A stretch of 64,000 nucleotides of DNA from Balanoglossus misakiensis. Its lineage: Eukaryota > Animalia > Hemichordata. The notes below the pieces were generated by a model, which saw only the letters and a list, made by a program, of their open reading frames with translations, was not told the DNA's origin and searched no databases. This document shows, in pieces, positions 20,601 through 55,585 of this stretch. Numbering within the stretch: position 1 is the stretch's first letter; each line of letters starts with the position of its first letter. The DNA lies in contig CM082586.2 in assembly GCA_040954595.2 (NCBI GenBank), positions 9,021,337 to 9,085,336 of the forward strand. Reading direction: 5' to 3'. Both the position numbers and the translations under genes were made by a program.

Positions 20601-23600
20601 GTTTCCCAACTGCGACGAAACTCCTTCCAGTTTTGCGCAACGTTACCATCTAGGCTTAGATGTGCTGGAGGTTTCAGTTGAATGTTGGATTGAGCCATTT
20701 TCCTCAACTTCTGACACCATGTGTTGTATTGGAACTCCGTACGCCATGAAGTCTAGTCAACAGAGTGCCAAAACGAGGCAACTCACTTTATTACCATAAG
20801 TCAACATAGAGGGCAGTATTACAGATAGTAATGTACAAGGCATTCAAAGTAACATACATTACAATTATGACCGGAAATGATGCAGATGAGGTCCTGGTTC
20901 CTATTGAAATAAACAGGTAAGGAGATTGATCAAACATTCTTTATATAACAGTTTACACACAACACCAATGGCTAATGTAAGTACTATAATCTTGGACAAT
21001 TTTTACAATAGAATTTTCCAAAATAAATAAGGATTTGCAAGCTGTTAAAGGGACAAAGTCTCTCTCTCTCGCTGCCCTTTTCCCATTAATATTATGTTTC
21101 ATTCAAGACACTGTTTATGTTAATGTACATGTGGATATATACTGAATGAACATTCAACCACACACACCTTCCATCCCGCTTGTAGACACGAGAGTGAAAA
21201 ACCTTGCCAAAATGAACAATCGGTCTCTACCATTTATTCATTTTGGGCGAGTTTTTACTCTCATATACAAGCATGGTGGAACTTGTGTGTGGTTGAACGT
21301 TCATTCACTACATATACACATGTACATTAACATAAATGGTGTTTTGTATCAAACACAAAAAGAAAAAGGGCAGCGAGTGAGAGACCTTTTTAGAAAGCCA
21401 TAAAACATGTGGGATATCCGAGAATAGTTCTATTATTTGTAAAAATGGAGGTTGCTCGTCACAAAAAATAACAGAACCTGCTTGACAGAAAAGTTCCATG
21501 AAAAAGACAGGGCATGTATAGATGTAATTTTTGATGCTTTGATACTATATTTTAGATTAGTTTTTCCTGTCCCAAAACACCATGCAATCTGTTGTATTAT
21601 GTCTGCATATAATCAACATTAATTGTTATTGAAAAGAAATAAAAGTGTGAGTTAAAATATTTGGGACTAAATTGCACTGCAGATACCTTGAAATCATCCT
21701 GGGTATCAGAGTTAAAAACTCTATTGCTTCCTCATGTCTCTGCCACAATGCACCTTCTCCTGGCAGCAAGAAATCTGCAATCCTTTCATAGTGGCTTTGC
21801 AGTAGTGTTGGTCGTCGCAGTATTTCGTCCTCAGGGATTACTGTATTCTGACGTTTTGGGAGCTGCTTTCCAATTTTGCTAATTTCAGATTCTATAATTT
21901 GTGATGGATCTCTTTCTTTTGTCATCTCTTCTTCTGCACCTAGACGTATCATGGCATTACCTATGATACCACCTGGACGCTTGGAGGAAGTTGTTTTCGT
22001 CACTCTCCGTATTCGATTGAAAACTCGCTCCTGGTTTTCAGCATTTGTTGACCTCAGAGAAACCAATCTCAGTTGATCAGGTAGATGGACGGTGATGTTA
22101 TGGAAATACCGCCCGAACATCTTTCGTTTGGTAAGTTTCTTTGGCTTCTCAAATACCCTTTTGCACAATATTCCATGCAAAAATACAGTGTTATACAATC
22201 GCAGAATCAGTCGTGGGCATCTGTCATTGTCATGTTTATAAGCAGTTTCGCTTATTTCAGCAAGCGTGTCAATAAGCTGACCATGCTCAGTATTTATGTT
22301 GTTCTCGTGAAGATACTGGGACACCAGAAGGATAGCTTTGCGTGCATCGCATCCCCGAATTTCGTCTTTACCACCATATGTTGCCTGAATAAAGTTCTGT
22401 AACTTTACTGCTTCTTCTTTATCCTTGGTTTGTGCTGGAATTTCTTCTAACACATTGTGGATGTGTCCCTTCAGGTCATGGAGTGGCTCTGATGGCAAAA
22501 TTTCATATGCAGAGCAGTTTATTTCAGCAAGATTATATTCTGGAGTGAGATGGAGCAGTGCTGGTACTCTCTGCATACCATGTAAAATTTCAGAGAGTTT
22601 AGATTGTAAGTCTGGCTTCTTTAATCCTTCAGTTTCTTCACCCCTAGCATCAAGCTCTCTCCTAAGGTCGGCCACTGTTAAGTTGGCAAATGGATGGGAA
22701 GTTTGCCGTGACTTTTCTCTCCATATTGGGCTGCCCTTGATTAACAAGTTACGTTTCTCATCTATTGACAGATATTTCAGATGGTAACATGCAGACAGAT
22801 CATCATGTCTTCTTGACTCTATTCCACAGATGCACTGGTAGTGACCTCCTTTCTGGTGCTAATCCTCAAACTCCTGTGCCGGTCCATCGCCATGAAAAAA
22901 TCGGTGGACATCTGTGTATTCCCTGGAACCTTCGTCGGATGTTATTGGTCCTGTTGCACATTTTAGATCTTCTACTCTGGTTTCAACATATGACAGCTGA
23001 TCAACGTCATTGGAGTTGGATCGTCCCATTATATATAGATGTGGCTTCTCAACAAGCGAGTCAACGTTTACTTTTTTTCCGTGTTTCTCCAAGTACTCCT
23101 CATTTGTCAGATATGTTGCCGCGTCGTATATCCAGCTCACCATGAAGACAATGTGGGAATGGTTGCCTACAGTACTGTGGTCATGCCATATTTTGAAGTG
23201 CCGTGAGTGATGTAGTCTTTTTAATTTACTGCGCATTTCATCGATGGTTTCTCCTTCTTTCAACTCGTGTATTCTTTGTAGCTCATCCCTTATTTCTTTT
23301 TCTTCTAGGTTTTGGTAATGACCGTCGTCATACCCATAAACATGGCTTCTCAGAACACCAAGCTTAATTTGTCTGTCAAGCTCTCGTTTTCGGATTGTCT
23401 GTAAGTTTATTTTTCTAGCGTAGATTGTATAAGTTTCTTCTTTTAATTTGCCATCTTTTCCAATGGTCATCTTTTGGAACTCTTTTGGTGCTATTAATTC
23501 ACCGATGTCGATTTCGCCACTTCTTATTTTTGTTTTCAATATTTCTTGCAGGGCTCTTGCTGGTCGGTGTTGAGGAAGTGACACCTCCCCCAAGACCTTT

Positions 23601-26600
23601 CAATGTTTTACGGTGTACTCTTCTGACAAAATCTCGACCTTGAACCTTCTTATTGATATTGAACTTGTCAGTGTCGATGCCAGCTGAGGTTGCGTACTCT
23701 TTCAGTATTTGGCCACCATTTGCAGCTGTTAGCCCGTACTTTCTCGCAAGGCTACTCCAGTTGACCTTGCCAGCATCATAATTGGAAAGTTCACTTACAA
23801 ATGAGCTTTTGTCCCATTCAACAGACTCTGTTTTTACAACATGGTCTTTTGGTGTCAGCTTGTTGAGGGATTCTAGTTGTAGACGGCGATTTACTCGCTT
23901 CTTGGCAGAATCGGTAGACTCAAAGTCAACAGACCGTCAACATGATTCGTAGCAAGCAAATGACTGACCGGATCCTAGGATTGTTTTTAAATCTCCGTCA
24001 TTTTTAGCGTGGGATTTTTCGATGCTTTGCTTGACATTAGTATAAAGTGCTCGTCTGTCTTTCTTTTTCTGTTCTTTGCTGATTTTTGTCTGTAGCTTGA
24101 ACCCCGGAACTTTGAGAAGCGCTTCACTGAAAGGTGTTGAGTACACTTTATTGTATGACTCCTCTACTCGCTGATATAGCTGTCCGGCAGTTCTTACGGT
24201 AGATTTAAGAGGGACAGTCAGCTTTGTCTCATGTGGATTTTGTAGTTGTTGCATCTCTCCCATTGCATCTTCAATTACCTCAACAGTCGAGAAGGGAAGA
24301 CTTTTGATATGTTTCTGATAGTACTTGTTCAAAAGCAGAACATCAACATTGCTACTTTGGCACTCTTGACAGTCAAGTGCTGTGTGTAGGATTTGCCTTG
24401 ATAAAGGCAGTTTTTGCCAACTAGTTGCAGAAAAATACTGTAGAAATACTGACATTTTTCCTGGAATTCAACCATTGAACTGAAGCACTTAGTGTTTTCT
24501 CAAATCGTGGCAGTTTAAATTTAAACTGGTAACTTGCATATTTCTGCTGTTAGCCATGATATCCTGATATTTGGCATACCTTTGTCCAATGGATATGTTG
24601 TAAACAGGCATAAATCTTGATGTATTTTCAGCCTTTTCCTGAGTAGACTTTTCGGAATTAGAAAGCTCTTTTGTTGCTCTTGCAGCTATGGCCATAAAAT
24701 AACCACAAAATGCCATGATGACATGCCAACTGAACAAGTGCATACCTCCAAATAACAGCTGAAGGGATCATCTGCTGCAATTTGAATATGGCGCCAATTT
24801 TACATGAACAAAGGAAAAGTTGAACTTTGACCTTTCAAGACGCACTATTTTGATGGGGTAAAATGAAAACCATGTACTCACCAGATTGAAGTTGAAATAA
24901 AGGTTTATTTCCCTCATATAATGTTGTCATGGCTTGTTAAATAAGTGAATGAGTGACAGTAATTACTACTTGTGGCTAAAAATCATCCCAAACTGATTGG
25001 GAATTATGTATGTTCACGATTTTCTGAACTGTAGCGACACTAAAATGATCTTGAACGCGGGCGGGCGCTAATGGTAGCGTCCATGTCAGTTGCTAGGATA
25101 CGCGTATACGATCAGCTGATTTTACCCACAATGCATCACGCCAACTAAGGCATTACGTAATGGCACCCCTGGACGAGCGTCCCAGGGTAAGGATAATTTA
25201 CGAGGCGGAAAATACGAAAAATCCACCGCTAAACAGCTTTATTTTCTGACACCTCTGGTCGTAATCGAAGGTTAACATGTTTGCCCATTTCAAGATTACG
25301 ATACTGTGTTTGAAAACGAAGTTAATGATTCAGCATAACCCTATAAATGTTGGAATTTTGGCTGCCGGTCAATGGGTAGTCGATAATCTACATCGTCAAA
25401 ATATTATGGCAGCGAAATACACTACAGTATGAGTCCTATCAGAGAAAGTTGACGGGTCATAAGGTGAAACTAAAAAATAATAATGGGATTGTGAGCATCT
25501 AGCGGTGGATTTTTGGCCTTCTTTTAAGAATATCATTTTCGACCCCCAAAATGCCACTATTTGTCACATGATAATAGTTTTGGAGGTTTTCTCGGAAATG
25601 TCTCATTTTATTTGCTTGTCTTGAACATGAATTACATCAACTGATTGGCTGGTGTGGTTACAATTGTTTATTATGCTCGATTAACGTATTCAGTCTGTCG
25701 ATAGAGGGCGCCCACGCCTTAACGTACACGAGAATGGCGTTCCACCGGAAGTATCACCATGGTTGCCTACTTACTTCACAATTTCATTTTTATAGATCGA
25801 TCGCCAAAAATTGAGATTATCCGAATTATTTTATACGTAATCATAATTTACGCGTACAAGTGTCGTTTGTTGTTCCGAACGTATGTTCCACACGTATGCC
25901 ACGTCACGTGACAAGGACGTTAGCCAATCACATGAAGCAACATCTGCATGATACTATCGAATCAGAGCGCGAGCTCAAACGGATTAGGAGAGACATCTTG
26001 ACCGCGTCTCTGAAAAGCCAAAGGTCAATTGTTTAAATGATAAAAAGGATTTAGCAAAGTTCACATCAAAATAGAGGAAAAATATGCACCTATCTATTAT
26101 GTTGTTGATTGATTCATTCCAAGGTGTACATTAAGAACTGTCCCTCATTTGACTTAATAATCCAAATTACACAAACAATAAACGCATAAATTTTATTGTT
26201 ATTAATGAAAATACTGGTAGAGTTGATAAGCTGAATACTGGACATTTAAGCATATCTCAATTTGCAAATATAGAACTGGAAGTGAACATAGTATCAATAC
26301 CCAAACAACATGAAAATCACGCACCCTTTTTTAAAACTCTAGACCAAGGTAAAATAATTGCCTGAACATTTTTCATCAGATCCCTTCTATATTTCCAAAC
26401 AATTCTTGAACACAAATCCAAAATCCAATGGTCACATAATCTAATCCAAACACACCCTTCAAATAAATCTATGTCATATAATCCAATCAAAGCACATATT
26501 TCAAATACATTTACATCCAACAATTGTGGAATTAGAAAATGTGGAATTGAAAGTCTCTAGAGCTGCCACTTTTTAGCATTAATTTCCAACTTAAATTAGT

Positions 26601-27831
26601 CCATCTAAAAAGCTTACTTAGGTATACATGAACACCTTATCGATGCCCGATTATGACTGCATGTTGCAATTGAACACTTTTGTATTAAAACGGTGCCGCA
26701 CCTATTTCATCAGCCTCCATACAAACAGTACGCAGCTATCGTGGTTTGCGTTGCCAAAAGATGACAAACTGATGCAAATGCGAGTAATATGGTTTAAGTT
26801 GAGGATTTAGAGGATAGGGAATATATTTGAAGTATTTTATTGTTGAAAAAATGTGAAATTTGGCAGCTATACAGGCTTTAATAGACAGGCATTGAAATGA
26901 CTTTACAAACAAATTTTTCTTGAATGTTTAAGACAGACAGAATCAACCCACAGTCAGCCTCAAATATATAAACTATTACAAAATGTTAATTAAATGGAAA
27001 ATTTTGAAAAAATTTGCTTGGCCACTCATTTGATTGCATTTTTTCCATTTCATATTTTAGGCATGGTATATCAATATAATTTGTTGTGTTGTGTATATAT
27101 TATGCTTGAAAACCAATTGACGGAAATATTAATTTAGAATAATGGTTATATTTTGAGAAATCACAAAGATTTCTACATCACTCCCACATCATTGGTTGCT
27201 TAGCAACAGACATTCACCCTCCAAGCAAATTAATATCCTTTGAGAAGTATCATGTGGAGAGGATCATGCAGTCACATAATCTTTGATTTGTACCATCCAC
27301 CATTTCATTGTAGGCTTTATCATAAAGGTGTTGTTTGGATTTCTGGCAGTTTGTAAGGTGATATGAGAAATGCATTCCTTTCTGGCAAAAGACAACAACG
27401 TGTACTGCAAATTAATAGCTGGAATCATGATGATGATGATGATGATAATAATAAATATTATTTTTTTAAAAACAATATTTTGAAAATAACTGTAAAAGAG
27501 ATCGCCCACCGTCTCTCTCATATACAGGAGTGACGTCGTAAAGACACACAGCTCTGCCCAGCATAGCTCTGGACTTATACGCTGTTTGGGTCAACGCTGC
27601 TCTCCCTCCCCAAAGCTATGGAGCCATCCATAGGAAAATCCGTTGGGTGCGGAGCAAAATGATACGCACCGATTTTCAAACAATAAACTACATGAACATG
27701 TACATAATGTTGTCAGAAATAAAGATCGAACGAAAATTTCACAAATGGGAACCTACTTGACGTGTTTGTCGCCGAATCGTAAACGTCGTTAATGCAGCGC
27801 CGTAAAACTGGTGACCCTCCCATACAAACAT
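2657..27831 (-). CDS. tentative host gene on - strand; candidate exons 27831-27757, 27404-27294 and 2795-2657, with the TE cluster lying in a large intron
   Basis: ATG exon MFVWEGHQFYGAALTTFTIRRQTRQ ends at gtaggt and joins in phase 0 to an ag-bounded exon YTLLSFARKECISH...KWWM. The last exon follows a strong pyrimidine tract (VESVPVTNQ...YQFHVKVHTCYPLLALIAMFWAISEGDYTF*) but is phase 2, so intermediate exons are not identified. Linkage is inference only. Confidence 0.25.
3820..3966 (+). pseudogene. isolated Ty3/gypsy RNase H fragment
   Basis: LAVVWACERFHLYVYGQKFTIVTDHKPLVHIYN...PPARIERWAL is the typical gypsy RNase H C-terminal motif (TDHKPL); no LTRs or adjacent pol sequence. Confidence 0.85.
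7886..9250 (-). pseudogene. Sola DDD transposase, disrupted by a frameshift and a stop
   Basis: Three consecutive ORF pieces carry PRTDVCAKC, FDFAQ, ADNCGGQNKN and GHTKCICDACFG, the Sola DDD triad motifs. Confidence 0.88.
9629..10070. repeat. 21-bp minisatellite with a 105-bp higher-order period inside the Sola element
   Basis: Unit about CGTATAATGATGTATGCACAG; translated ORFs repeat every 7 and every 35 aa. Confidence 0.95.
12150..12834. mobile_element. remnant of a non-autonomous DNA transposon (Harbinger-like end)
   Basis: Repeated GTTCTCACT and ACACCGGTGTA motifs and a terminus CAGTGAGAACGCCC at 12821-12834; matching left end not found. Confidence 0.4.
14590..15022. mobile_element. palindromic non-autonomous repeat (Crypton-like architecture)
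   Basis: Long imperfect hairpin 14590-14761 centred on CATATGCGGCCGAGGGAAATAGCATATG, plus a second inverted pair ACCTCATGCTAA / TTAGCATGAGGT. Confidence 0.55.
16177..16320 (-). repeat. 3' LTR
   Basis: Matches 20720-20863 except GGGACT vs GGAACT; PPT AAAAAAGGGGCG lies at 16321-16332 on -. Confidence 0.98.
16496..20698 (-). CDS. gag-pol polyprotein of about 1400 aa (Gag with Zn knuckles, protease, RT, RNase H, integrase)
   Basis: CRKCGKPNHFASKC knuckle, LDSGSQV protease, IVDDML RT, TDHKPL RNase H, HASHQG...CSVC and GTDLF/SDNGP/NGQVE integrase; gypsy domain order. First ATG at 20698. Confidence 0.97.
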   Translation of the reverse strand: MAQSNIQLKPPAHLSLDGNVAQNWKEFRRSWETFATAAELDKKEEAVQVATFLHVAGTAARQVFDTFEFADPRDEHKIDPVIEKFAGYCEPRKNITVNRYLFNSRQQKINESFTDYLTSLRTLLKDCSLPQDLADEFLRDRIVCGIRDEKVRERLLRTDDLTLQNAVNTCKAAELSADQMRSLSFIDNDSPVDVHDVKRAGGKQSRGKSHQKFTRRPPAGNRQSPNRQCPNCPYEHDSRKCPAYGKTCRKCGKPNHFASKCRGTAQRTNNRCASPTTQHPAQQSMSRARSSQHQRSQRAVKAVTHADSSDEDIALFTIDTLTVRTLETETDSRSKDWSQSCRIGDTNVSFKLDSGSQVDIIPVSVLKSLVPKHIHLKRSQITLKSYSNHVIKPIGQVQLKVKVNTQGVNGKITQSKPIPITFQVVTGNVVPILGRETCERLNLLKRVFHVQTCGPVPKQNGNISTASEKSHSKRTKQAQRLLDKNKDLFEGLGCLNNCEYDIQIDPTVPPVQLPPRQIPHKLRDKVKAELDRMVLLDVIEPVTEPTDWVSQITVVMKKNGQVRVCLDPQELNKAIRREHFPNATLEDVVTRMPDANIFSKFDATSGYWQLKLSDASSKLTTFNTPWGRYMFKRMPFGISSASEIWQRAMIDEFGDLEGIEVIVDDMLLQATCDDEHDKNLCQFLDKVRESGLKLNGSKCEIAVDEVEFSGHLLTSEGLKPSPERIRALTEMSKPQNKSELQTFLGIMVYLAKFVPNLSALTAPLRELLAKGIEWSLEARHDAAFDKLIEVATNAPVLKFYDAKKPVTISTDASDKGFDAMISQDSHPVAYASRRLNNAEVNYATIEKEMSAILFACTRFHDYIYGDKTTVETDHKPLVGIFQKPLHKLSPRLQRMRMNLLRYDLHIVYKPGKEMLIPDALSRAPIDAPQQSDAEREVLSIINQMPISDQKLEKLREETTCDPTLLKVIDLATSKWPDNKMYVSDEVKPYHAYRHEITYAHGILFRNNQVIIPASMRPEIMQKLHASHQGIVKTKQRARSILFWPCINNEIEDMISKCSVCMEFRPKRSREPMIPHEIPTTPWSKVGTDLFELGSDDYLVIIDYHSKFPEVIKLPNKTANAVISATKSVFAREGIPDTVISDNGPCYDNREYRKFAHDWEFNHIKISPGYSQSNGQVENAVKSVKRLMKKAYKSGQDPYVSLLEFRNTPLDGTNGLSPSQLLKSRILKSKLPTAENLTKPHIVPPMTNHLKARQLKQKYYYDRTARHNIAQPVPGQPVRFRNPHAKWEYGVVKESLPQPRSVLVESQSGKVYKRNRRHMYPTSENPPPPDLPDIDEYLQESCSKPVPVSNRLSESTFSDTPHTTPPNTTAHTKLKHDQVKIRPDVTTRYGRVSKGKVQLDL
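20702..20719 (-). promoter_or_regulatory. primer binding site (probably tRNA-Leu)
   Basis: TGGTGTCAGAAGTTGAGG immediately inside the 5' LTR; TGGTGTCAGAAGT is complementary to a tRNA-Leu 3' end (from recall). Confidence 0.8.
20720..20863 (-). repeat. 5' LTR
   Basis: 144-bp direct repeat of 16177-16320. Confidence 0.98.
21049..21390. mobile_element. MITE of the AGGGACAAA/TTAA family
   Basis: TTAA|AGGGACAAAGTCTCTCTCTCGCTGCCC at the left and GGGCAGCGAGTGAGAGAC at the right; internally palindromic; right tip eroded. Confidence 0.8.
25085..25135. promoter_or_regulatory. putative promoter cluster upstream of the RAG1-like transposase
   Basis: GTTGCTAGG (RFX-like), ATCAGCTGAT (E-box) and TACCCACAATGCA (ZNF143/Staf consensus-like) within 50 bp of CpG-rich sequence. 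Confidence 0.4.
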
Positions 27832-28089
27832 GGACGTTCGCCTTCATTTAAGTCATGTGATCAACACGTGACACGTGTTTTACTATGCCAAGCAGAGCTA
27901 CATGGTGCCTGCAAACTGCATGTGGCTAAAACGGCACATATTCTAAGTTGTGCGTTTAATGTATCAGTAGAACAATACCTTCATTTTGCAGCTGTGTTGT
28001 TTTCATGTTCGCGGAAAACTTCTTTGCCACCATCGGTTTAAAACTATGAAAGCCAGTTGGGGACATGTACATACGCAATAAATAAAAAA

Positions 28090-28581
28090 TTATCTCGAGA
28101 TCTCGAGATAATTCCATTCGTTTTCCTGACTTTTATTTTTTTATCTCGAGATCTCGAGATAATTCAAGTTCGTTTTCCTGACTTTTTATTTTTATATCTC
28201 GAGATCTCGAGATAATTCCATTCGTTTTCCCGACTTTTATTTTTTTATCTCGAGATCTCGAGATAATTCAAGTTCGTTTTCCTGACTTTTTATTTTTTTA
28301 TCTCGAGATCTCGAGATAATGCTATTCGTTTTCCCGACTTTTTATTTTTTTATCTCGAGATCTCGAGATAATTCAAGTTCGTTTTCCTGACTTTTTATTT
28401 TTTTATCTCGAGATCTCGAGATAATGCTATTCGTTTTCCCGACTTTTTATTTTTTTATCTCGAGATCTCGAGATAATTCAAGTTCGTTTTCCTGACTTTT
28501 TATTTTTTTATCTCGAGATCTCGAGATAATGCTATTCGTTTTCCCGACTTTTTATTTTTTTATCTCGAGATCTCGAAATAA
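28090..28581. repeat. left subterminal array: 10 copies of the 22-bp palindrome TTATCTCGAGATCTCGAGATAA, period about 52 bp
   Basis: Directly counted; linkers are near-identical variants of TTCGTTTTCCYGACTTTTTATTTTT. Confidence 0.97.
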
Positions 28582-29020
28582 TTCTCTCGAAAGAGGGCGG
28601 TGTGTTGGTAGGGGGACTGTCCAGAGAGGACCATGCATCGATATCGGTCCAGAGAGGGACATGCATCGATATCGGTACGGAGAATTGGCAAGCAAGCACT
28701 CAGTGTATTCAATGGTAGGAGTGATCGTCGGTTTCAGAGCTGCATGCTGCATCGTATCATCAGACTGAGTGCATGAGTCTTGGTAATTAGTTGACATTTC
28801 AACTTCGTAATATTTATAATTACTAGTTATACGTACTGGGACAAATTACCGAAGTCTTGGCCAGAGATTACTTTCCAAGTTGGCAAGAAAACTGACTCAG
28901 TGGTAAAGTTACTAAACAATTGGTTTCAATATTATACTTTATTCATTATCATTATACGATAATTCCTTTTATCTAATGCGACAATTAACATTCCTCCTCT
29001 ATCGAACAGATAACGTCACC

Positions 29021-30988
29021 ATGGAAAGAGATGATATAATCCGTATCTATTTCAACATGGGCTTCAACTACAGTGAAATCCTGGCTACTTTAGCTGTCAA
29101 TCATAACGTTGTCATTAGTATGCGTCATCTTAAAAGATTACTGAAGAAACTCGGACTTTTCAGACGGAAGTACCATTCAGACATCAATGAGGTAATAACA
29201 TTTCTGAGAGAAGAGGTTGACAAATCTGGAAGACTCCACGGCTATCGGTGGATGCATTTAAAGTGTGTCCAGAGAGGATTGGTTATCGACAGGGAGAGTG
29301 TGCGGTTGTTACTCCAGATCATTGACCCCATAGGTGTGGAATTAAGAAAGAGACGTCGTCTACGCCGTCGCCAGTATGGGTCTCCTGGGCCGAACTATAT
29401 GTGGCACCTAGATTCGTATGACAAACTTTCCCCTTACGGAATAGCAATCAATGAGTGTATAGACGGGTTTTCCAGGCGTGTAATTTGGGCTCAAGCTTAT
29501 CACACCAACAGTGATCCGAAGATTATAGCAGGGTACTTCATCAAAGAAGTTGAAAGTCTGAAATCTTGCCCCCAAAACATGCGAGCGGATAGAGGCACAG
29601 AAAATGGACATGTTGAACAGTTCCAGAAGTTTCTAACAAATGATGACAACTGCTTTTATTATGGCAGCAGTCAACTCAACCAACGCATAGAACGATGGTG
29701 GGGTACATTTCGCCAACACTGTGGACAGTTTTGGTTGGATCTTTTCTACAAACTAAAGGATGATGGAGTCTTCAGTGGTGATTATCTTGATAAAGATCTG
29801 GTCAGATTTTGCTTCCTGAAAATGATACAGGTAAGAAGAAGAATTTGGGACTTAAAAAATAATTGTCTTTCCTCAATCTGTTACACTATCACTTATACTG
29901 TATATACTTTAAATACTTATACAGAAAATATTGCTAGGATTGATATTATATAGTGAAAACGTACAATACAATAAAATATAAGAAGTCCCATGTATAAACT
30001 GACTAACAATAACCCTACGCTCTTCCAAATGGGAGGAGTATAAAAAAGAACGTTTTTATGTATTGAAAAGAAAGGACTGCTCACATATTTTGGTTTAAAC
30101 CTTCAAATACAAAGTAAAAAAGGCTTAAAATGTGCTGTACATGTGTTGATATGTATCATGATGAACAAAAATCACAACCTGCAATGCATTGTGTGTGTGA
30201 TTTAAGACTGTCCTTGTCTACTTATTCCAATTGTCCATTTTATGCACCTCTATCCTGCATGCATATGTTGGACAACATTTTAGACTTTCCACTCCTTCGA
30301 CAAATACCTTACTATTAATCTCGGATCGAATACTGTTGGTGTGATAAGCCTCATCATAAATTACACGCCAGCTGGTAAACCCGTCTATACACCAATTGAT
30401 AATCTAATATATGTAAATTGTTATAATTATAATATTTGTAATTTTATTCCGTTTGTTTGGTTATATTTCACTACAATAAATTAATTTTAGGTGTACCTTC
30501 CCGTCTGAAGAGTTCATGTAGATGAGGTGTCACCATGTATGTATCTTTTAGATATCCTATAGTACCTAGGGACTATGTTTAACTGATGCATGTATTAAAC
30601 TGCTAACATTGAACTTCCTCATACATTTTGTGCCTGTCATTTTATAATTCAGGATGAACTGGATGATGCTGTAATGGAATGGAATTGTCACAGGATCAGT
30701 CGTTCACGTAACGCAGTCTCTCCCATCGGGCGACCTCACATGATGTTCTTTGTCCCGGAGATGTATGGAAGTCATGATTTCGGATCAACTGTTTCTCAGG
30801 AACAGATTAACACATGCTGAGAGGAATGTGTGTTCAAAGGAGCGTGCCCCTGTGATGAAGATTTATTCGAGTACTGTGTCTCATACATGGTCGACAACAA
30901 TATGCATTTACCTTCTGACCCATATTCTGCTGTGGAATTGTACGTGAATCTCCGAAATTCTATAAAATATGAATCCTTATCTGACTAG
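29021..30988 (+). CDS. integrase-like DDE transposase; exons 29021-29830 and 30653-30988; one premature TGA at 30818
   Basis: N-terminal HTH-like region, then WHLDSYDKL, CIDGFSR, RADRGTEN and NQRIERWW. Phase-0 intron CAG|gtaaga...ttcag|GAT continues into DELDDAVMEWNCHRI...GRPHMMF...AVELY. Confidence 0.9.
30221..30400 (-). repeat. diverged inverted copy of transposase exon 1 (29447-29620) inside the transposase intron
   Basis: Reverse complement aligns co-linearly with the exon, with exact blocks GTGTATAGACGGGTTT, GGCGTGTAATTT, GCTTATCACACCAACAGT, GGATAGAGG and AAAATGGACA. Confidence 0.9.
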
Positions 30989-31515
30989 CAAGACCTTACT
31001 GTAAAAGGAAATTATTATACATCACCCAAACAACAACAACAATGTCACTTCCATGCAAGGAACTGGATGAATTAAAGCAAGATATTTGTCAACACAACAA
31101 AGTTTTATTAACTTTCAGAACATAATGACAATATTGTTCATCTTCAACACTGAAGTAATATGAAACTATGGCACAGACTTTGTGTTAATGTTAGATCTAA
31201 TTCTGTAAAGTATAATACTGTCACCGCAAATAAAAGCTGAAATACAACAACTTTGTGGCTCAACTGTTTGCACCTTAAAACCACATGATGCCCAGGCTTG
31301 GTTGTAGATGTAAATATGTAAACAAACAAACAAACATGTTAATAAAGAAACTAAGTATACAGACGATAAGTGACAAGTAAAGCACTGATCTTCTTTGGTA
31401 GAGTGGAACAGAGACTACTCCTAGTTGTTTGTTTACATTATATCTACACCAATAACCAAGCCTGGTCATCCTGTGCTTTAACCATTATGTCACACACTGT
31501 GTCACATAGTAACTG

Positions 31516-31617
31516 AATAAGTAACTGAATAACTCCCCACAACAGGCTGAATAAGTAACTGAATAACTCCCCACAACAGGCTGAATAAGTAACTGAATAA
31601 CTCCCCACAACAGGCTG
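31516..31617. repeat. 34-bp tandem repeat, 3 copies, between the convergent 3' ends
   Basis: AATAAGTAACTGAATAACTCCCCACAACAGGCTG repeated three times. Confidence 0.95.
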
Positions 31618-32005
31618 CAATAACACATCAAGTATTTAGCTTCTCCATATATTAGATAATATGTGTAAACTTTTAACGTAATCAATGATAAAACAATTTG
31701 TAGGAAATATGACAGTAAATGGCAACTGTATGAACATTTAAAGAAAACACTGAAAATAGTGCAAAGTTACAGGCGCATCCCTTAATGAATCCACATAAAT
31801 TCACCTCTTCCATGCAGCAAAGAGGTGACTTCTGACACGTCAGGTTCATCATTGACATAATCATTACTTTGCATACCAAGTGACTTTACACAAGTATTCC
31901 CTGTATTCTTTCTATCAATGTAAGCCAAACACAACAATATTGTCCCTTTAATTCATGTAATAACTCACCATTGCTGTTCTACCAATGGAAACAATATCAA
32001 TGGTC

Positions 32006-34515
32006 TCAAATAATATCCATGTCCCAAAAACCACTGTTCAAAACTGCATTGAACTCACTTCTGAATTCTACGAAGTTGGCATATGACAATGGCAGTTCAA
32101 GCACATTGCCACATGTGTGAGCAACTGGACGACGTTGTAAACCATCAAGTTTAACAAATGACACTTGAATCGGCTCTGCTGTCATTATGTCACAACCAGT
32201 GCAATATCTCAGGAACTTCTTTAGAGTACTTTGTTCAAGTTCACGGATGTATCGTTTTAAGTGATTAGCAACAGCCCTCTCATCATTATTCAAGCATTCG
32301 GCGATTTGAAGATGTTGTAGGACTTTCTTTGTTGTTGGTTTCTTGTCATTATACAGTCTATCCAAGTTCTCTTTGCCAATTTGTTTGCCTAATGGCTGTA
32401 AGATTGGTCGCCAACTATCAATGACAAACATTGGCTCTTGTACTATCTCTTTATGCGCTATTTCGTGCAGAATGGATCCAATGTTTTCTTTGGTTGGCAG
32501 TCTTTTACAGTCATGTCGGTCTAACACTTCAATTAACTCATCTTCTTCTACTTCTTGGAAGTTCTTCATTGCAGCTTCAAATACTTCACGGTCCGATTCA
32601 GACAGGAAGTGATAATACACTTGAAGTAGACTTGCCTCTTCACACTTCTGGTCTCCAAACATTACTTCTTCCATGAATGGCTTTGCAAACTCAATAGGGA
32701 AGTAATCCATTTCCTTCCAACCCTTCATGATTATTCTTGCTACAGCTTCCCATTTTTCTCTTGGGTAATCATGCCTAATGAATGGCACCCGGCAATTCTT
32801 TCCAACTGTGCAACATTCATAGAACTCGGACCAAAAACTTGTAAAACAGTCTCTCACAACTCCATTACCACTACCACGCTCAATATTACCTCCTGGCATA
32901 ACCATGGCCACATTGATAGGACATGCCATAATCTTTGGATCTGAGAATTCTGAAATCATGTCATTCAAAACATCACTCCTGTGTATTACAAGTGTTCTAG
33001 TCTCCACTGGGTCTTGATCTTCACTGATATGACTAGTAGTGTCTTGGGGCTGGGATTGGCTAACAGGTTCATCATTTTCAAAGAACGGCAATGTAGAATC
33101 AAGGCTTTCTGCTGAGTTACTATTGGAACCCCGTGATCCAAACTGAACAATGTTTGAATCATTATCACTAATCACCAGTGGTTCTGCATCAGAATCGACT
33201 GTCTCTAATGTGACTTCAGAACCTACGTCAGGGATGGGTTCAGACTGGAATCTGCTACAACTGGGCATACCATGATCATGGTGAACTGTATCTAGGATAT
33301 GCTTATTGTGGTTTCCTGCACTTGGTACACCTGCATCATTGCTCTCATCAGACAACATATCAATAGATTCCTGTGGAAGAGCTTGTGACTGTCCCTTGCT
33401 TGCTTGTCTCGTCTTTGCCGGTGGAACTGGCACATGCCTATCAAGTCCTGGATCAGGTAGATCACCATAACTGCTGTCATCTGACAATGACACTGATTCT
33501 AATTGTGACTGCTTACTTGTTTGTCTGCTCTTCTTTTTAGGTTTCACTACCTGTTCACAGTCTTTTCTCTTTGTCATAATGTAGAAGCGGAGCATTCTAA
33601 ATCCAGTTACTTCATACAATTCGCCAACGGTGCTTGTTTCATCAATTGTTCTTTCTCCTGAATCTCTTATGTCAACGTGATAACTGTCCATGTCTCCTCG
33701 CTGTGATACGCCGTTGGGGAAAAACAAATCTTTTCCTGTAGTCAGGAGATCAGCTTTCGTGCTCGACTTACTTACTGATATACACCTTGTTCCACCACCT
33801 TTTCTGGCTCGAACTTGCTTGTATTCTTTTTCAATGAAATCAAAATCAAGCCATCCTATTTCAATTTTCCGCTTTATTTTTGCTGCATGTGTATTACCAA
33901 ATGGTCTTGGTCTAGTTGAGGCTTGTCCACGATTACCTTTACTTGATTCTCCCTTGTCATCTGATACACTATTCTGCTTTCCATTTCGAAGGCTAAATTT
34001 TTGTCTTATTTTTTTCAGTAGTTCTGACTTCCTGCTCTCTCTGTCTGGAACAGTACAAAATAATCTGCGAGAGAAGTCCACAGCAGCAACTCTGTCCCCA
34101 TAAGATGTCAAATACTTAGATAACATCTCATCATCCATTAAGAGGATCACCGATGGATCAATCTGAAAATCAATTTAAAGCACATGGAATCTTAGTGCAT
34201 GCATATGGGCAGAGGGTGCGGGGGGTCTCGCTAAATACATACATACATACATACATACATACATACATACATACATACATACATACATACATACATACAT
34301 ACATACGGGTACATACATACAAACAAACAAACAAACAAAGATGGAAAGACTGTCAATGAATATTTTTCCACCTACTAGCCTTAAAGCTCATTTAGCCATA
34401 TTTACATATATGCAACAAGAACTAATAAAAAATTTACCTTTTCCTGTTCAAGTCTGTCAATTTCCTCTTCAGGCACTCTGCGTCGTCTAAGAAATTCATA
34501 TAGTTTTTCTGCCAT
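32006..34515 (-). CDS. SAM-like domain + HECT E3 ubiquitin ligase, 744 aa; exons 34515-34438 and 34162-32006
   Basis: Exon 1 MAEKLYEFLRRRRVPEEEIDRLEQEK joins in phase 0 (AAG|gtaa...ttcag|ATT) to IDPSVILLMDDEMLSKYLTSYGDRVA, giving a SAM-like fold. C-terminal HECT motifs GVVRDCFTSFW, LKKFLRYCTG and RPVAHTCGNVLELP (catalytic Cys retained). No disablements seen. Confidence 0.88.
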
Positions 34516-34822
34516 TTTGTCTGATCTGTTTGCTTAAGTAATATTTTTCTGTAAGGAAAATCAACAACAGTTAAATCAAAACTGATGTACCTAAAGACAA
34601 GCATGAAATAATGCATCAACTTGATTTTTATGAACAGTTTGGGAAATTTGAGAATATCTACTTTCTCACCTTGAATAAAGTTGATATTTCACCAAAAATT
34701 ACAGTGAAGCAAGAATTTTGTTCAGAATTTTTGATGAGGAAACTTCTCAATTGTCAACATACATACATACATACATACATACATACATACATGCATACAT
34801 ACATACATACATACATACATAC
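34215..34822. repeat. two (ATAC)n microsatellites (34215-34305 and 34757-34822)
   Basis: Directly visible tetranucleotide runs, one in the HECT gene intron and one upstream of its first coding exon. Confidence 0.95.
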
Positions 34823-34944
34823 ATACATACATACATACATACAATTTAAAATAATTTAGGGAGTGATTAAGACTTCAACTTGGACTCTATTGATAATTAT
34901 ATAACTCTTTGTAATAAATGCCATCGGTGCTTAAATCTTCATTA

Positions 34945-35255
34945 TATTATACCAGTATATTGATGGTGTAAATCACGCTATTTGATTGGTCGAGACACGA
35001 CACGTGACCGTGATATATTAGCCATATACCACAGTCATATATCATAGTCAAAGAAAATGCCTTTTTAAAATGTTTAATGCAAAGTTTCAATATACTGGCA
35101 TAATATAATAGCAATAAAACACCCCAGCCATGGTATACCACTCGATTTTGACCAGTTCAACTCCATATACGCACTCGCTATCGCTCGTGCGTATATGTCG
35201 TGAACTGGTCAAAATCTCGTGGTATACCATGGCTGGGGGTGTTTTATTGCTTAAA
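34945..35255. mobile_element. palindromic non-autonomous repeat (Crypton-like architecture) inserted in the IS3EU element
   Basis: Short inverted pair TATACCAGTATATTGA / TCAATATACTGGCATA, then a ~140-bp hairpin centred on CACTCGCTATCGCTCGTG. Confidence 0.6.
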
Positions 35256-35344
35256 TATTAAATCAAGTCAATCAATGTGCACAAACATTACACACACACT
35301 CATTAATACATAGAGACAGACACAGACAGACACATACACACTCA

Positions 35345-35393
<49 letters not shown>

Positions 35394-36198
35394 CCTATTT
35401 TGCTTTAATTTTTTTGTTTGAAACTTTCATATCAACTGAAGAGTTGTTGACGTTTGACCTTGGATGTACTGAGGTCACCATACACACTCACATTTGTCTG
35501 TGTCATAATCACAGACTGAAGCAAAGTAAAATAAATCACAGCAGCTGTACTGATGTTAACATTGCATTGTTTAATATTCAAGATCAAGTTAAAGTGCATT
35601 TATTTATTGGAAGAATCCAGTTATGGCAACTTGATCCTAGGCGATGTAACTATCCGCCCCACACACAAGTTGAATCATGTATGATATATGTTTCAAACAG
35701 CGCGGCATAAGGCCAGAGTTAGCCTCAAGTTGTGATGGCATATATATATATATATATATATATTGATGGCATATGTTACATCATGAATCAAAAATCAAGC
35801 AAGTTAAGTTGAGTACGAGATACTGACAAGAACGTCTCAGTCAACCTATTGCATGCAGCACATTGTCAACGTCGCGTCGATCGTGTTTGGCATGATCATG
35901 ATGACGCTTGACGTGCAAGGCGACTCAATAGATTGCCACATCACAAACCAGTACAAATTGTGCATCGTGTGGTCATGTTACGTGTACGACAAATCTAACG
36001 GTTATGAGAAGGAGGTAAAATCTCAACTTACCAACACTCAGTCAGTCTGATAAGATACGATGCAGCATGTAAGGCAGAATCCGACGAAAAGTCCTGGTAC
36101 TAGGTCAAGCTAGTAAAAGAACGCCATATTCTCTGTACCGATACACCGCCCTCTCTGGACTCTCTCCGTACCAATACACCCGCCCTCTTTAGACAAAT

Positions 36199-36272
36199 TT
36201 ATCTCGAGATCTCGAGATAAAAAAATAAAAAGTCAGGAAAACGAATGGAATTATCTCGAGATCTCGAGATAA
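36199..36272. repeat. right subterminal palindromes (2 copies)
   Basis: TTATCTCGAGATCTCGAGATAA twice, with the linker inverted relative to the left array. Confidence 0.95.
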
Positions 36273-36639
36273 TTTTTTATTTATTGCGTATGTACATGTC
36301 CCCAACTGGCTTTCATATAAAACCACTGCATCAGGTGAATCTCAATTTTTAAGAGCGATACTTCAAACATGCAGCACTGTTTACAAATCGGGGTCAAAGG
36401 TTATACAAGAATAACCATGTACAGTTGGTATTTTTCGGATGTACCTCTGGCCATGGCCTTGGTCTATAAATTGTTCTTGACAACATATATTTTTAAAGAT
36501 TTTGGTTTACTGAATTACATCTATAGCTTATAGTGATGGCTGTTTACCTAATAATCATTTTAACAACGCCAACTTAGCTGGCGCTGGATCGAGGGTACAG
36601 GACTATCCTAGGTCAAGGGTCAATCGTGAATGTTTTGGT

Positions 36640-37211
36640 CGCGAATCAGCTGATCTTTTACAACAGCGTGTTACGCCCCTTTTTTAAATTTCTCATGAGT
36701 GGAGACGTCAGTGAAAGAACATATTTCGGATAATGGAGCATTCTTGGCAGTGTTTTCAAAGGGTTTCGCAACCTTTCTACATGGGACGCGGCGGCGCTTG
36801 GCAGAACTTTGCGAGGTGGTCGTCATCACAGGTCGCACCGTAGTTGAGAGAGAGAGCCATGACACTGACAGAGCCGGGTGAGTGATTGAGATCCTGGATC
36901 AGTTGCCGTCACTCAGATCACTAGATATTCTCTCTCATTAGGGTGTAGCTACGGTGTTGCCACGGGACCTACGACGTTTTATCGTGACGTCGGTGTTGCC
37001 CCGACCGGCCAGGGAAGTATATCAGATATGATGAGTCCGGTGATGACTTGGCTTTACGGCAGTCGCTGTGCCTGTAGATAAAGGAAAGGAACAGTACAAC
37101 GCGCCGCCAGTGTGATTAGCATCGCTTGGAGCAAGACTAGATGACAGACATCGCCAGGGTCGTTGGCAAGACCTTGGCGGGCAGAGATGTGTGACACAGG
37201 TCCTCCTACAG
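36640..37211 (+). promoter_or_regulatory. CpG-rich putative promoter and non-coding first exon of a + strand gene
   Basis: CpG-rich island with TGACGTC/CAGCTG motifs, ending at a consensus donor CTACAG|GTAAGC (37211/37212). Confidence 0.4.
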
Positions 37212-38286
37212 GTAAGCCAGTCTTAATTCTTTTACATGCTTTTCAGAGTCAGCTTTTTGAGATGGTGAGATCTCTGTCGTGTGGTTTCTCTGTGTGACCT
37301 TTAGCTCTGCATACAGCCGGGAACACACAGACCTGTACGCAGAGCTATGTGACCTTCTGAGTCATATAATAATGTCACATTTAGTACTACATTATCTCTA
37401 TGGAAACACAGCTAGGGGGAGGGTGGAGGGGGGGGGTTCTATGCTGGTTTCCCCCATCATAGACCCACCCGTGACCCCCACCACAAAAATCTGTAGTGAA
37501 ACAACAGCCAAACCAGTGCACTATATCACAGTCCCTCTATTACATACTGTGACTGTATAAGCTAAAAAATAAGACATTCACTTTTTGAAATAAACATTTC
37601 TCTGTTAATTATCTCTGAAAGCTTGATATAGGAGAACATTTCGGTTACTTCAATGTCACCATTGTTTTCACTACTATCACGTAACAAGCAATTTAAATTA
37701 CCTTCGCAAAAACAGTATGCTCTATGTTTTTTTGTTAACGCTTTGAGATGTCTGGCTCAAATCTGCGTGAATGCAAGCTGTCATAACTTTTGTACAAAGT
37801 AGTGTCTCATTTTTTTTTAAAGCAACTAGCTTGATTTTTAAAATGAAAAAAACTTCTGATATACTAGGAATAGTAGGATTTATTCACTGCTCCAGAAGTT
37901 TTCTGAATTACAATGCACTTAACGGGACATTAGCTGTAACTTTTGGCTTTAATTGATGTACATATATTTTTGTTCTGAGTATCAATGGGAATTTCTTGTT
38001 CTACTCCAAACAGCATGCTAATATACCCATTTATACTTCACTTGTCAACATAGCCCGTGAATGTGTAATGTTATCATTCACATTTTTTTACTACTGTTAC
38101 GTAAATATGCAACATGTCTAAAAAATATGTTTTTATAGAATGTATTTATTTATTTAGAGTAAAATGTTTTTGGTGACATTTAAATATTTAGTGGATGGTA
38201 TTTTATACATCAATTGTGGGTTTCAACATATTGTTGGGAGTAGCACAAGAATCTTAAGTGGCCACATAGAATTAATTTTCAACCTT

Positions 38287-38463
38287 CAGTAAAACCTGTC
38301 AAAACCAAACCCTGTCTAATCTGGAAACCTGTCTATACTGAACACCTTTTCAGTACCTTCGACATAGAATCACATGTTAAAAGAACCTTTACAAACTGGA
38401 AATGTCTGTAAACTGAACAATTTCTTCAGTGCCTTCAGTGTTCGGTTCAGACAGGTTTTACTG
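38287..38463. mobile_element. small Tc1/mariner-like MITE
   Basis: TIR CAGTAAAACCTGTC ... GACAGGTTTTACTG followed by TA; related ends near 43410 and 61720. Confidence 0.7.
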
Positions 38464-38469
38464 TATTTA

Positions 38470-38927
38470 ATTTCTCACACTGCTGGCCGCTGGGAGTGTG
38501 GGATAGGATATCCCCGACGAGTGTGAGAAATACGATCTCAGGTCCTTGGGAGTGTGAGATTCTATTATTCTCACACTCTCACTGAATCGAAAGCTGTATA
38601 TGACGCGAGCGCTGATTGGTTGACAAAGAGTTCTTTCTCTTCGCGCACTAAATGTTATCCAATGGCGTGATGTGTATTACAGGCACAGAACTATAACGTG
38701 CCCCCAGACGACAGTTCCAGAGTCATTTATTCAATGTTTTAACGAATTTGGCTAATTTGTGACCGTGTGAGAAAAATAATCTCACACACCAAGGACCTGG
38801 GATCGTATTTCTCACACTCGTCAGGGATATTTTGTCCCACACTCGCCTGCGGCTAGTGTGTGACAGAAAATCCCCAACTCGTGTGAGAAATATGATCCCA
38901 GGTCCTTGGGAGTGTGAGATTCTATTA
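38470..38927. mobile_element. Crypton-like hairpin repeat (TCTCACAC family)
   Basis: Terminal hairpin centred on CACTCGCCTGCGGCTAGTG; a second copy lies in inverse orientation at about 60100-60525. Confidence 0.65.
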
Positions 38928-39889
38928 ATCCCAAATGTCATAGCAGCTGCCCCTTTAAAACAATTTCTTTAAAAAATGTGTTTCTAATAGATTTGGTCAG
39001 GTGGAAAAGTATGTCACATACTGTTTTCACTGAACACTGATGTGGTTGCAATTTTATTGACACAAATTGAATCACACTATGCATCACATTAGACTTAGGG
39101 GTAAACCATTTTATATTTAGGAGAGTGCAGTTTAGTTTCTACTCTGCCTATTCTCTGATGTTTTTTCTTTACTATTTGGCAGAGGCAAAATGCAGACTAG
39201 TTATGGAAGTGTTCCTAAGTAACTATGCATAAATTATTTCTAATAATCTAAGCACATTATGTAAAATATAAATCAACCAGGTAGACTCATGTCTCCCCCT
39301 ACAGTAATGGTGACAATTCTTTTTATAGTACCCAACTTACTCAAGTAAACACACTTAATGTTAGCAAACAGTCCTATAGATATAGCCTGGTCCCCTGTCC
39401 CATTCCTGCTGCTGGTAGTGACAGCAGGGTTAGAAAGTGGGCAGAGAACAAGAGTATCTTACAGGCCTCTTTCATGACCCCTGTGTGACCTTACATCCTG
39501 GTGATTTGTTGGTTTGACATCATTCATCATTCAATGTTGAACAGCTAACCTTTTCTAACAGGCAATGTTCACCAGTTTTGTTCAAGGATGAGAAAAAATG
39601 CATTGATTTAATAGCGTGGTTGGTAAACTCGAAATTGTATACTCACACCGACAAAAAGCCAGGATGTAGAGGTCAAAAGCGGTCATAAAAGTGGCATGAT
39701 ATAGCACAGTTGCCAGTGGTGTAATGTTTATATGAACTGTGCAACTTCATTCATATTTCTTAGTGGCAGTAATGTTATTATAAATATAAACTGACATCTG
39801 AAATCACTTTGCGATGTCGAAATTCAGTGGGAAGAAACAAACGCCAAAAGTTACCACATTTTATACTGACACTTATTTGTTTTGTACAG

Positions 39890-53100: not shown

Positions 53101-54033
53101 TTACCTGCAGTTTTTCTGAACCATTGGTTTTTGCTGGTTTTTGGAATCCACACGTTACTTCAGGAAAAAGTAACAGCCCGCTCTGTTGATCTGGCAGAGC
53201 AGGCAATCAGAAAGTTTGTGACTCAAACTGAATGCCTTTATGGGAAAGAAGTGATGTCATTTAATATGCACATTCTACTGCATTTGTCTAGTAGTGTTAG
53301 GGAATGGGCACCTCTCTGGGCTACATCTTCCTTTGTGTTTGAAAGTCACAATGGTGTAATCATGAAGCTATTTCAGGGTACTCAAAGTGTGCCTTCACAG
53401 ATATCAAACACATTCTGTCTGTGGAGAGATTTATCAAGAAGATCCACAATTATACCACAGGATAGTGATCTGAGGCCACTATTTGACAAATTGTCTAGAG
53501 GAATTGTGCATTTAAAGAGGGACTTTCATAGCTGCTCAGGGGTTGTGGCCATGGGAGCTGCTGACAAACGGGAAATAAGATTGACAGACAGGTTAGCTGT
53601 AGAGGAGGCTGTGGGCCACCCTATCTTGAATGTGAATGCCAAATATTACAAGAGATTCACTATATCAGGTGCTGTGTTCACAACAAGTAGCTACACTAGG
53701 GCAGCAAAGAGAACGAACCATTATTTTCAGGGACAAGATGAGCAATTGTATGTAATAAGAAACCTTGTAATTCTTAGGCCAGGTTGCATATGCCAAGGTG
53801 ATTGTCACTGTAATGAAAGATCATTCCTGATAGCCAGTGGTTGTTTAAGTGGGAGGTCAATGTTTGTTGACAATGAAATTGGCATACAGTGTACACATGT
53901 AAAACCACTGCGTGAGATTTCACATGAAAGAATTGCTGTGCGACCGTCGTTTTTGAGACGTAAATGTGTAGTTCTTGGAATGGGTGAGTCAATTTACCTC
54001 TCACCACTCCCCAACCCTTTTGAAAGGGACTGA
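50141..54033 (+). CDS. CACTA/EnSpm Tnp2-type transposase; exons 50141-50251, 50806-51189 and 51818-54033; one frameshift near 52588
   Basis: WNCDGVPAFKSSGFSIWPI, SDSAARP, YNGQYGCDWCLHPG, PDFLHCVLLG, WKGSEWR, FNMHILLHL and FVFESHNG; phase-0 GT-AG introns. Confidence 0.9.
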
Positions 54034-54358: not shown

Positions 54359-55585
54359 TCATGGTTGGCAATATTTTTCAATAGAAAATCTATTGACGGC
54401 AATATAATTCAATAGAGACAGTGGATTTTTGTTAAAATACACTGTTCACAGTGAAATGTATGTAGTTGGGGCAAACCTGACAAACTCTTTGTCATTTTGT
54501 GATGATTATGTGCACACATTTGCTAAAAACTAGGGGAAAATGTTTCTTTCACCTATTTCATGGTTGGCAATATTTTTCAATAGAAAATCTATTGACGGCA
54601 ATAGAATTCAATAGAGTCAGTGGATTTTTGTTAAAATACACTGTTCACAGTGAAATATATGTAGTTGGGCCAAACCTGACGAATTCATTTGTCGTTTTGT
54701 GTTGATTATGTGCACACATTTGCTAAAAACTAGGGGAAAATGTTTCTTTCACCTATTTCATGGTTGGCAATATTTTTCAATAGAAAATCTATTGACGGCA
54801 ATAGAATTCAATAGAGACAGTGGATTTTTGTTAAAATACACTGTTCACAGTGAAATATATGTAGTTGGGCCAAACCTGACAAATTCATTTGTCGTTTTGT
54901 GATGATTATGTGCACACATTTGCTAAAAACTAGGGGAAAATGTTTCTTTCACCTATTTCATGGTTGGCAATATTTTTCAATAGAAAATCTATTGACGGCA
55001 ATAGAATTCAATAGAGACAGTGGCTTTTGTTAAAATACACTGTTCACAGTGAAATGTATGTAGTTGGGGCAAACCTGACAAATTCCTTTGTCATTTTGTG
55101 ATGATTATGTGCACACATTTGCTAAAAACTAGGGAAAAATATTTCTTTCACCTATTTCATGGTTGGCAATATTTTTCAATAGAAAATCTATTGACGGCAA
55201 TAGAATTCAATAGAGACAGTGGATTTTTGTTAAAATACACTGTTCACAGTGAAATGTATGTAGTTGGGGCAAACCTGACAAATTCCTTTGTCATTTTGTG
55301 ATGATTATGTGCACACATTTGCTAAAAACTAGGGAAAAATATTTCTTTCAACCATTTCAAGGTTGACAATATTTTTCAATAGAAAATCTATTGACATCAA
55401 TAGAATTCAATAGAGTCTGTGGATTTCTGTTAAAATATACTTTGTTCACAGTGAAATATGTGTAATGGGGGCAAATCTTACAAATTGCTTTGTCATTGTA
55501 TGATAATCATGTTAAAACCTATTAAAAATCATTTTTCACTTATTTCATGCTAGGTAATATTTTCAATAGAAAATCTATTGACGGC
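54359..55585. repeat. right subterminal 200-bp tandem repeat, about 6 copies
   Basis: CATGGTTGGCAATATTTTTCAATAGAAAATC recurs near 54360, 54559, 54759, 54959, 55158 and (diverged) 55358. Confidence 0.96.

Follow-up and report, generated by a model that had tools for sequence, protein, structure and literature searches.

A selected gene for a predicted HECT ubiquitin ligase in an IS3EU-type DNA transposon of the acorn worm Balanoglossus misakiensis

Why does a DNA transposon carry a gene for a ubiquitin ligase? The question is raised by a mobile element of IS3EU type that occupies 8.3 kb (positions 28045–36317) of a 64,000-nucleotide stretch of the genome of Balanoglossus misakiensis (assembly GCA_040954595.2, contig CM082586.2, positions 9,021,337–9,085,336 of the forward strand; the whole stretch is referred to as the window). 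The element is flanked by TAAAAC and holds two convergent spliced genes, one for a transposase on the plus strand and one for a HECT-type ligase on the minus strand, as an initial annotation of the window had described. We find that the ligase gene is almost certainly a fixed, selected accessory gene of IS3EU, and we tentatively propose that its product acts on the transposase encoded beside it.

The element is complete, as had been claimed. The arms of its terminal inverted repeats (TIRs) are 98 nt long and 98% complementary, with a perfect match over the outer 90 nt, and they are enclosed by a 6-bp target-site duplication (TSD). The terminal 10-mer occurs twice in the whole window, at the two ends of the element. 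The features of the ends are:

28039–28044, unstranded: left TSD, TAAAAC, read from the sequence
28045–28142, plus strand: left TIR, beginning TATGA, from arm pairing
28090–28584, unstranded: left subterminal array, 9.5 copies of a 52–53-nt unit with a 22-nt perfect palindrome
36220–36317, minus strand: right TIR, ending TCATA, from arm pairing
36318–36323, unstranded: right TSD, TAAAAC, read from the sequence

In the accessible part of PMC10045372, IS3EU is defined by TA..TA termini and usually a 6-bp TSD, and is joined with GingerRoot. The element has TA..TA on its TIRs, a 6-bp TSD and an integrase-like DDE core without the HHCC motif. It shares TA..TA termini, a 6-bp TSD and a TIR of about 100 nt with IS3EU-1_CGi, IS3EU-1_TC and IS3EU-1_DR, and its transposase core motifs match, by eye, the rows IS3EU-1_CGi_2p, IS3EU-1_TC1p and IS3EU-1_DR1p in the accessible part of that paper's supplement, almost letter for letter for the first two. 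These sequence features support its placement as an animal IS3EU/GingerRoot cut-and-paste transposon, and the IS3EU membership given by the initial annotation stands. The name ending in _2p suggests that Repbase may list two proteins for IS3EU-1_CGi. The terms HECT and ubiquitin had no match in the accessible main text of PMC10045372 and PMC6839031, and we found no description of a HECT gene in IS3EU in a literature search whose reach did not extend to Repbase Reports and subscription papers.

The ligase gene comprises exon 1 (34438–34515) and exon 2 (32006–34162) on the minus strand, which are joined across a GT–AG intron into a frame of 744 residues without an internal stop, in agreement with the uninterrupted protein reported earlier. 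In several related loci an AG acceptor stands ahead of the matching codons. The parts of the gene are:

34438–34515, minus strand: ligase exon 1, residues 1–26, first part of the SAM domain, from splice reading
34043–34162, minus strand: second part of the predicted SAM domain, residues 27–66, from a homologue model
33563–33877, minus strand: predicted ubiquitin-like (beta-grasp) domain, residues 122–226, from the model of homologue P0001
33011–33562, minus strand: basic patch, then an acidic, Ser/Thr/Pro-rich and poorly conserved linker, residues 227–410
32006–33010, minus strand: HECT domain, residues 411–744, with the stop codon; catalytic Cys710 at 32111–32113

Both the HECT domain and its AHTC cysteine, named in the initial annotation, are recovered. 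Pfam HECT scores 29.1 bits on the ligase (cut-off 23.9) and matches 53 of the 55 aligned members of the family. The AHTC cysteine, Cys710, is present in all 61 aligned relatives that have a residue at this position, and it aligns with the HTC motif of HUWE1. The predicted model of residues 411–744 (predicted local distance difference test score, pLDDT, 94) has the N-lobe and C-lobe of a HECT fold; it matches UBR5 with Z 23.8 (316 residues) and HUWE1 with Z 22.9, over 316–317 aligned residues and at 11–16% identity, and a Foldseek comparison with a cellular HECT gave an E value of 7e-11. The tail of the protein has a conserved W-x-M-D motif: position −4 is Met in 59 of 62 rows, and position −6 is Trp in 56 of 62. 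The ligase shares the whole bilobal HECT fold and the HTC catalytic motif with UBR5, HUWE1, Rsp5/NEDD4 and E6AP, but is 10–18% identical to cellular HECTs and differs from them in its N-terminal SAM and ubiquitin-like module, in its Trp-x-Met-Asp tail and in having its gene in a transposon, in multiple copies. We consider it quite likely that the ligase is catalytically active.

The N-terminal folds were read from the model of homologue P0001 (residues 1–229, pLDDT 85). On this model the SAM-like N terminus proposed previously is supported as a fold, with matches to the SAM domains of tankyrase (Z 8.4, root mean square deviation (rmsd) 2.4, 62 aligned residues) and BICC1 (Z 8.2); Pfam SAM matches 1 of the 55 members. 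The stretch that follows had been called a basic globular region; the prediction makes it a ubiquitin-like beta-grasp, an identity that had been missed. Its structural matches are mostly ubiquitin-like folds (best Z 9.1), and Foldseek returned weak ubiquitin-like matches, none at an E value of 0.001 or better. The domain carries the conserved motifs EIGW, QVR..GGGTR and LFFP.G, and when its relatives are clustered at 50% identity, 940 clusters result. Of the 146 newly listed proteins with this domain, 36 have at least 500 residues, and 35 of those 36 also carry this HECT. Motifs resembling a nuclear localization signal (NLS) occur in the N-terminal 260 residues of 37 of 54 relatives, compared with 2 of 54 in a control stretch of the HECT. 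The ligase is thus predicted to consist of a SAM domain, a ubiquitin-like domain, an acidic linker and a complete HECT. One family member, P0277, has two tandem ubiquitin-like domains and a Phe at the position of the family's catalytic Cys, and is possibly an inactive or domesticated derivative.

The ligase gene recurs in many related elements, so that it is not peculiar to this copy. A search with the HECT yielded 73 matches among 7,888 candidates, from fish, frogs, acorn worm, sea cucumber, molluscs and beetles, and a scan of metagenomes yielded 71 loci, 70 of which fit the family profile. A convergent IS3EU transposase lies downstream at 22 of the 26 HECT loci that have at least 2 kb of downstream sequence; the overall figure, with most contigs short, is 28 of 70, and the upstream control gave 1 of 12. 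Because some metagenome loci represent the same element from different samples, the 22 pairs reduce to 15 below 85% HECT identity. Two relatives are complete, with both genes and TA..TA termini: L003 (7.7 kb, TSD ATATTG) and L023 (6.1 kb, TSD CAAATG). HECT and transposase genes also bear neighbouring gene numbers at several loci in Sarotherodon, Gymnodraco, Chaenocephalus, Synchiropus and Hippocampus, the annotated fish pairs being ACER0C_002508/002509 and 024914/024917, LOC117532431/117532430, KUCAC02_006291/006290, LOC128757643/128757644, LOC128746623/128746624 and LOC127613309/127613313. Nine of the 12 transposase members of one cluster sit on contigs equal in size to those of HECT members. 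No adjacent pair was found in Photinus, Misgurnus, Girardinichthys or Oryzias in the few clusters examined per species, and no relatives of the transposase were found in viral contigs.

Such recurrence bears on the simplest alternative, that the HECT is a captured host gene travelling as a passenger with no role in transposition. GingerRoot elements do capture host gene fragments, according to the accessible part of PMC6839031, and 4 of the 26 HECT loci with a long downstream flank lack a transposase; the HECTs at those four loci, however, are partial or frame-broken. The position and orientation of the gene are fixed, it is multi-copy in step with the transposase and purifying selection acts on it between element families; the 940 clusters and the mere 10–18% identity to the solved host HECTs listed also speak against a passenger. 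This alternative is largely refuted, and we hold it to be extremely improbable.

The ligase gene is under purifying selection. The ratio of nonsynonymous to synonymous substitution rates (dN/dS) was taken from pairs with dS of 0.1–1.0, which left 64 of 990 pairs for the HECT, those with dS above 1 being dropped as saturated. The median dN/dS of the HECT is 0.17, and 57 of the 64 pairs fall below 0.3; among nine disjoint pairs, eight lie at 0.13–0.21 and one, with L034, stands apart at 0.99. For the N-terminal part of the ligase the median is 0.24 (seven pairs), and the transposase has a value of 0.07 (seven pairs). The gene is therefore not evolving neutrally, and with the pairing counts, the retained catalytic Cys and the full HECT fold this upholds the earlier suggestion of a dedicated accessory factor. 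Distances between HECTs and between transposases are correlated (Mantel r 0.70, p ~0.0005, 15 dereplicated pairs), and fish clades match in both trees.

What the ligase marks is a less certain matter. We favour, with a probability of roughly 0.45, the reading that it ubiquitinates its own transposase on the element ends, as a needed cofactor of transposition. The initial annotation had already named control of transposase turnover as a possible role, beside degradation of host silencing proteins. The ligase would enter the nucleus through its basic patches and oligomerize through SAM, the conserved face of the ubiquitin-like domain would grip the transposase, and a host E2 (ubiquitin-conjugating enzyme) would hand ubiquitin to Cys710. 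Host p97 or the proteasome could then clear the ubiquitin-tagged post-integration complex or remove surplus enzyme. Two arguments favour the transposase as the substrate. By the N-terminal dN/dS given above, the putative recognition module has been conserved in very distantly related hosts, as would be expected if its partner were itself conserved and moved with the element. Selection would also hold on to a gene linked in cis most readily if transposition depended on it; a general anti-silencing factor, as a public good, would be harder to keep in cis.

Several observations weigh against the transposase as the substrate. The Mantel value is no proof of co-evolution, because related hosts share the history of both genes. 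Holding the L051 HECT together with the HECTs that belong to its transposase neighbours was rejected (p value of the approximately unbiased test, p-AU, 0.0004). Forcing one HECT clade onto the transposase tree was rejected too, with a p-AU of 0.005, but the remaining test gave no rejection of congruence (0.16); all three groups were picked post hoc, after the trees had been seen. The co-phylogeny that the initial annotation proposed to check thus holds for the correlation and the fish clades but not as full congruence, which two of three clade tests reject. Partners have therefore probably been swapped between transposase and HECT lineages, and a strict cognate interface fits poorly with such swapping. 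This HECT family stands beside none of 10 more distant transposase loci on genome contigs, and two of these adjoin other HECT lineages: L072, where a convergent multi-exon HECT lies at 7831–10934 on the minus strand, and L078, where a divergent one lies at 718–1185 on the minus strand, about 9 kb upstream. At the other eight loci, which are partly short and were covered only in part by Pfam scans, the family profile and a motif screen detected no HECT. Many active HECTs, although not all, carry a needed Phe near position −4 of the tail, where this family has the conserved Met, with Trp at −6. Finally, in rust-fungus IS3EU elements with TET genes, the gene opposite in orientation to the transposase encodes an alpha-kinase, according to the accessible part of Kojima 2025 (PMC12730594). 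Those elements belong to the same superfamily and have a protein-modifying enzyme in the same opposite-strand slot, but the enzymes are an alpha-kinase and TET/JBP there and a SAM, ubiquitin-like and HECT protein here.

The L072 and L078 contigs are filed under bacterial genome bins and look eukaryotic, as they contain introns. When a piece of the HECT from L072 served as the query, no named relatives of greater length turned up.

A further point against the transposase as the substrate is that the best structural matches of the ubiquitin-like domain are Polycomb domains, which directs attention to host silencing. The SAM and ubiquitin-like domains might dock on a conserved host chromatin complex, Polycomb repressive complex 1 (PRC1) or another silencing factor, which the HECT would mark for removal, with the result that the element is expressed or target chromatin is opened. 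The top beta-grasp match is the Polycomb ubiquitin-like domain (ULD) complex 5fr6 (Z 9.1, rmsd 2.4, 80 aligned residues), followed among Polycomb structures by the Ring1B C-terminal domain (3gs2, Z 8.0) and PRC1.1 (5jh5, Z 7.8), and a RING2/RAWUL cluster is the first named structural neighbour in the atlas, with a TM score of 0.39 that falls under the atlas bar. SAM and RAWUL domains are both present in PRC1 subunits. Partner swapping between transposase lineages, seen in the clade tests and at L072 and L078, suits a host-directed enzyme. Precedents are the TET genes of fungal IS3EU and the anti-silencing proteins of Vandal/VANC MuDR elements, the latter cited in PMC12730594 (accessible part). 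However, the Polycomb matches lie within 1 Z unit of those to Atg5 (8.2) and the USP11 UBL (8.2), at 9–14% identity; RAWUL is not among the Pfam families matched by the 55 members at an E value of 0.1, which is a weak test; and the pairwise dN/dS values indicate purifying selection and not the fast change expected of an arms race. We regard an attack on host silencing, including either outcome for chromatin, as possible although somewhat unlikely. A more specific combination, in which the ligase is a Polycomb-mimicking degradation enzyme whose SAM and RAWUL-like domains dock in a host PRC1-type complex that the HECT destroys or rewires, seems very unlikely.

The architecture also bears on a third role, that of an adaptor for target selection or repair, in which the ligase would tether the transposase to chromatin and place non-degradative ubiquitin on histones or repair proteins where the element inserts, or would serve mainly as a scaffold. 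The modular SAM and ubiquitin-like domains, the long acidic linker and the NLS-like motifs are in keeping with an adaptor, and PIF/Harbinger elements offer a parallel, having two genes of which the second encodes a DNA-binding and loading partner. Pfam scans, however, detected no DNA- or histone-binding domain, and the invariant Cys and conserved tail speak against a pure scaffold, which makes this role quite unlikely. Like Vandal/VANC and PIF/Harbinger elements, this DNA transposon devotes a protein other than the transposase to its life cycle, but their accessory proteins bind DNA and this one is a predicted ubiquitin-transfer enzyme. Other transposons also bear enzymes of the ubiquitin and SUMO systems: Zisupton, Ginger1 and some MULEs have Ulp1 or OTU protease domains, in most cases as part of the transposase. 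Those enzymes remove modifiers, whereas the element's ligase would add ubiquitin and is encoded by a separate gene.

The transposase gene of this copy has the following parts:

29021–29830, plus strand: transposase exon 1, residues 1–270, integrase-like DDE core, from Pfam and alignment
30232–30400, minus strand: inverted decayed copy of exon 1 (29447–29610) in the transposase's own intron, 78% over 173 nt
30653–30988, plus strand: transposase exon 2, residues 271–381, with a premature TGA, from alignment

The integrase-like character noted at the outset is confirmed by a match to Pfam rva_4 (E 8e-24) and by D131, D190 and E224, which do not vary in any of the 46 aligned rows; a single Cys upstream of the first catalytic Asp leaves no HHCC motif. 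The initial annotation had overlooked a premature TGA at 30818–30820, codon 326 of 381, so that the uninterrupted frame looked for in an autonomous copy is absent. The tail lost beyond the TGA holds residues conserved in 23–25 of 26 full-length relatives. Residue 145, which is Gly in 44 of the 46 aligned rows, is replaced by Glu in this copy. The intron position is the same in L001, L003 and L017. In all four public runs examined, which come from two samples, the contigs read differently at 30818 and lack the TGA, and runs X1 and X2 also depart from the window at 29454; the damage may therefore represent private mutations, rare alleles or assembly errors. As assembled, this copy is probably not autonomous and, given the TGA, would need transposase in trans. 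The transposase pre-mRNA is predicted to fold into a long hairpin on the intronic inverted copy (z −16, 20 shuffles), and the inverted copy could give rise to double-stranded RNA or altered splicing. Inverted transposase fragments likewise occur in L032, L062 and L063.

The palindrome unit of the left array recurs in two copies at the right end (36199–36272), and 21-nt subterminal arrays with a CGAGA core are found in the complete relative L003 and at locus L017; the palindrome array likely comprises putative transposase-binding sites. Inward of the TIR arrays, 28599–28758 and 36054–36180 share a decayed inverted similarity of 78–79%, which suggests that both promoter regions derive from a longer ancestral inverted repeat. 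A hairpin resembling a miniature inverted-repeat transposable element, 85% self-complementary, lies inside the element at 35101–35260, upstream of the ligase gene. On the question of an overlap between the two 3′ untranslated regions, both strands hold several candidate poly(A) signals, and Rfam gave no match in 26000–39000.

Among the loose ends listed at the right end of the element in the public runs, one was found, matching the window's own left flank, and none pointed to other insertion sites; the run contigs drop rare forms. Depth in run X1 is similar for the element (1,252) and its flank (1,613). Across 35900–37400 in runs X1 and X2, the element and right flank reach a depth of about 1,200–1,600 in X1, with minor contigs at 34–66. 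The high shared depth could come either from a single, very deep locus or from a larger repeat unit with the flanks inside it. At 37316–37350, a motif of about 32 nt has dozens of different flanks in the runs and is probably the end of another high-copy element.

The window as a whole appears to be rich in transposons. An open 1,418-residue gag-pol frame of a long terminal repeat retrotransposon (zinc knuckle, reverse transcriptase, RNase H and integrase) lies at 16499–20752 on the minus strand, and three long open reading frames (ORFs) at 21629–24467 on the minus strand, one with a weak SAP domain, probably belong to another DNA transposon. DUF7869 ORFs and CACTA/EnSpm-type transposase ORFs (Transposase_21) lie at 7889–9031 (minus strand) and 51791–54030 (plus strand), the CACTA/EnSpm-type ORFs being followed by a 200-nt tandem array at 54359–55585.

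The superfamily is already known; new here are the SAM, ubiquitin-like and HECT architecture, the counts of linkage and selection, and the damaged transposase of this copy. The second gene of this eukaryotic transposon superfamily has been little studied, and a likely biochemical job can now be named for it. As a stand-alone ligase is kept by selection in a DNA transposon, either ubiquitination is needed to finish transposition or a host protein is attacked, and both roles are directly testable, because naturally intact fish copies exist. If the Polycomb-mimicking version were true, many uncharacterized HECT genes of fish and invertebrates would be transposon genes for counter-silencing, and the second gene of IS3EU would be a swappable slot for protein modifiers, filled by HECT in animals and by alpha-kinase in rust fungi. 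More generally, transposon genes probably make up many of the entries labelled 'uncharacterized' or 'HECT domain-containing' in the annotated genomes of fish, frogs, molluscs, echinoderms and beetles, and counting them as host genes would inflate the numbers of host E3 ubiquitin ligases.

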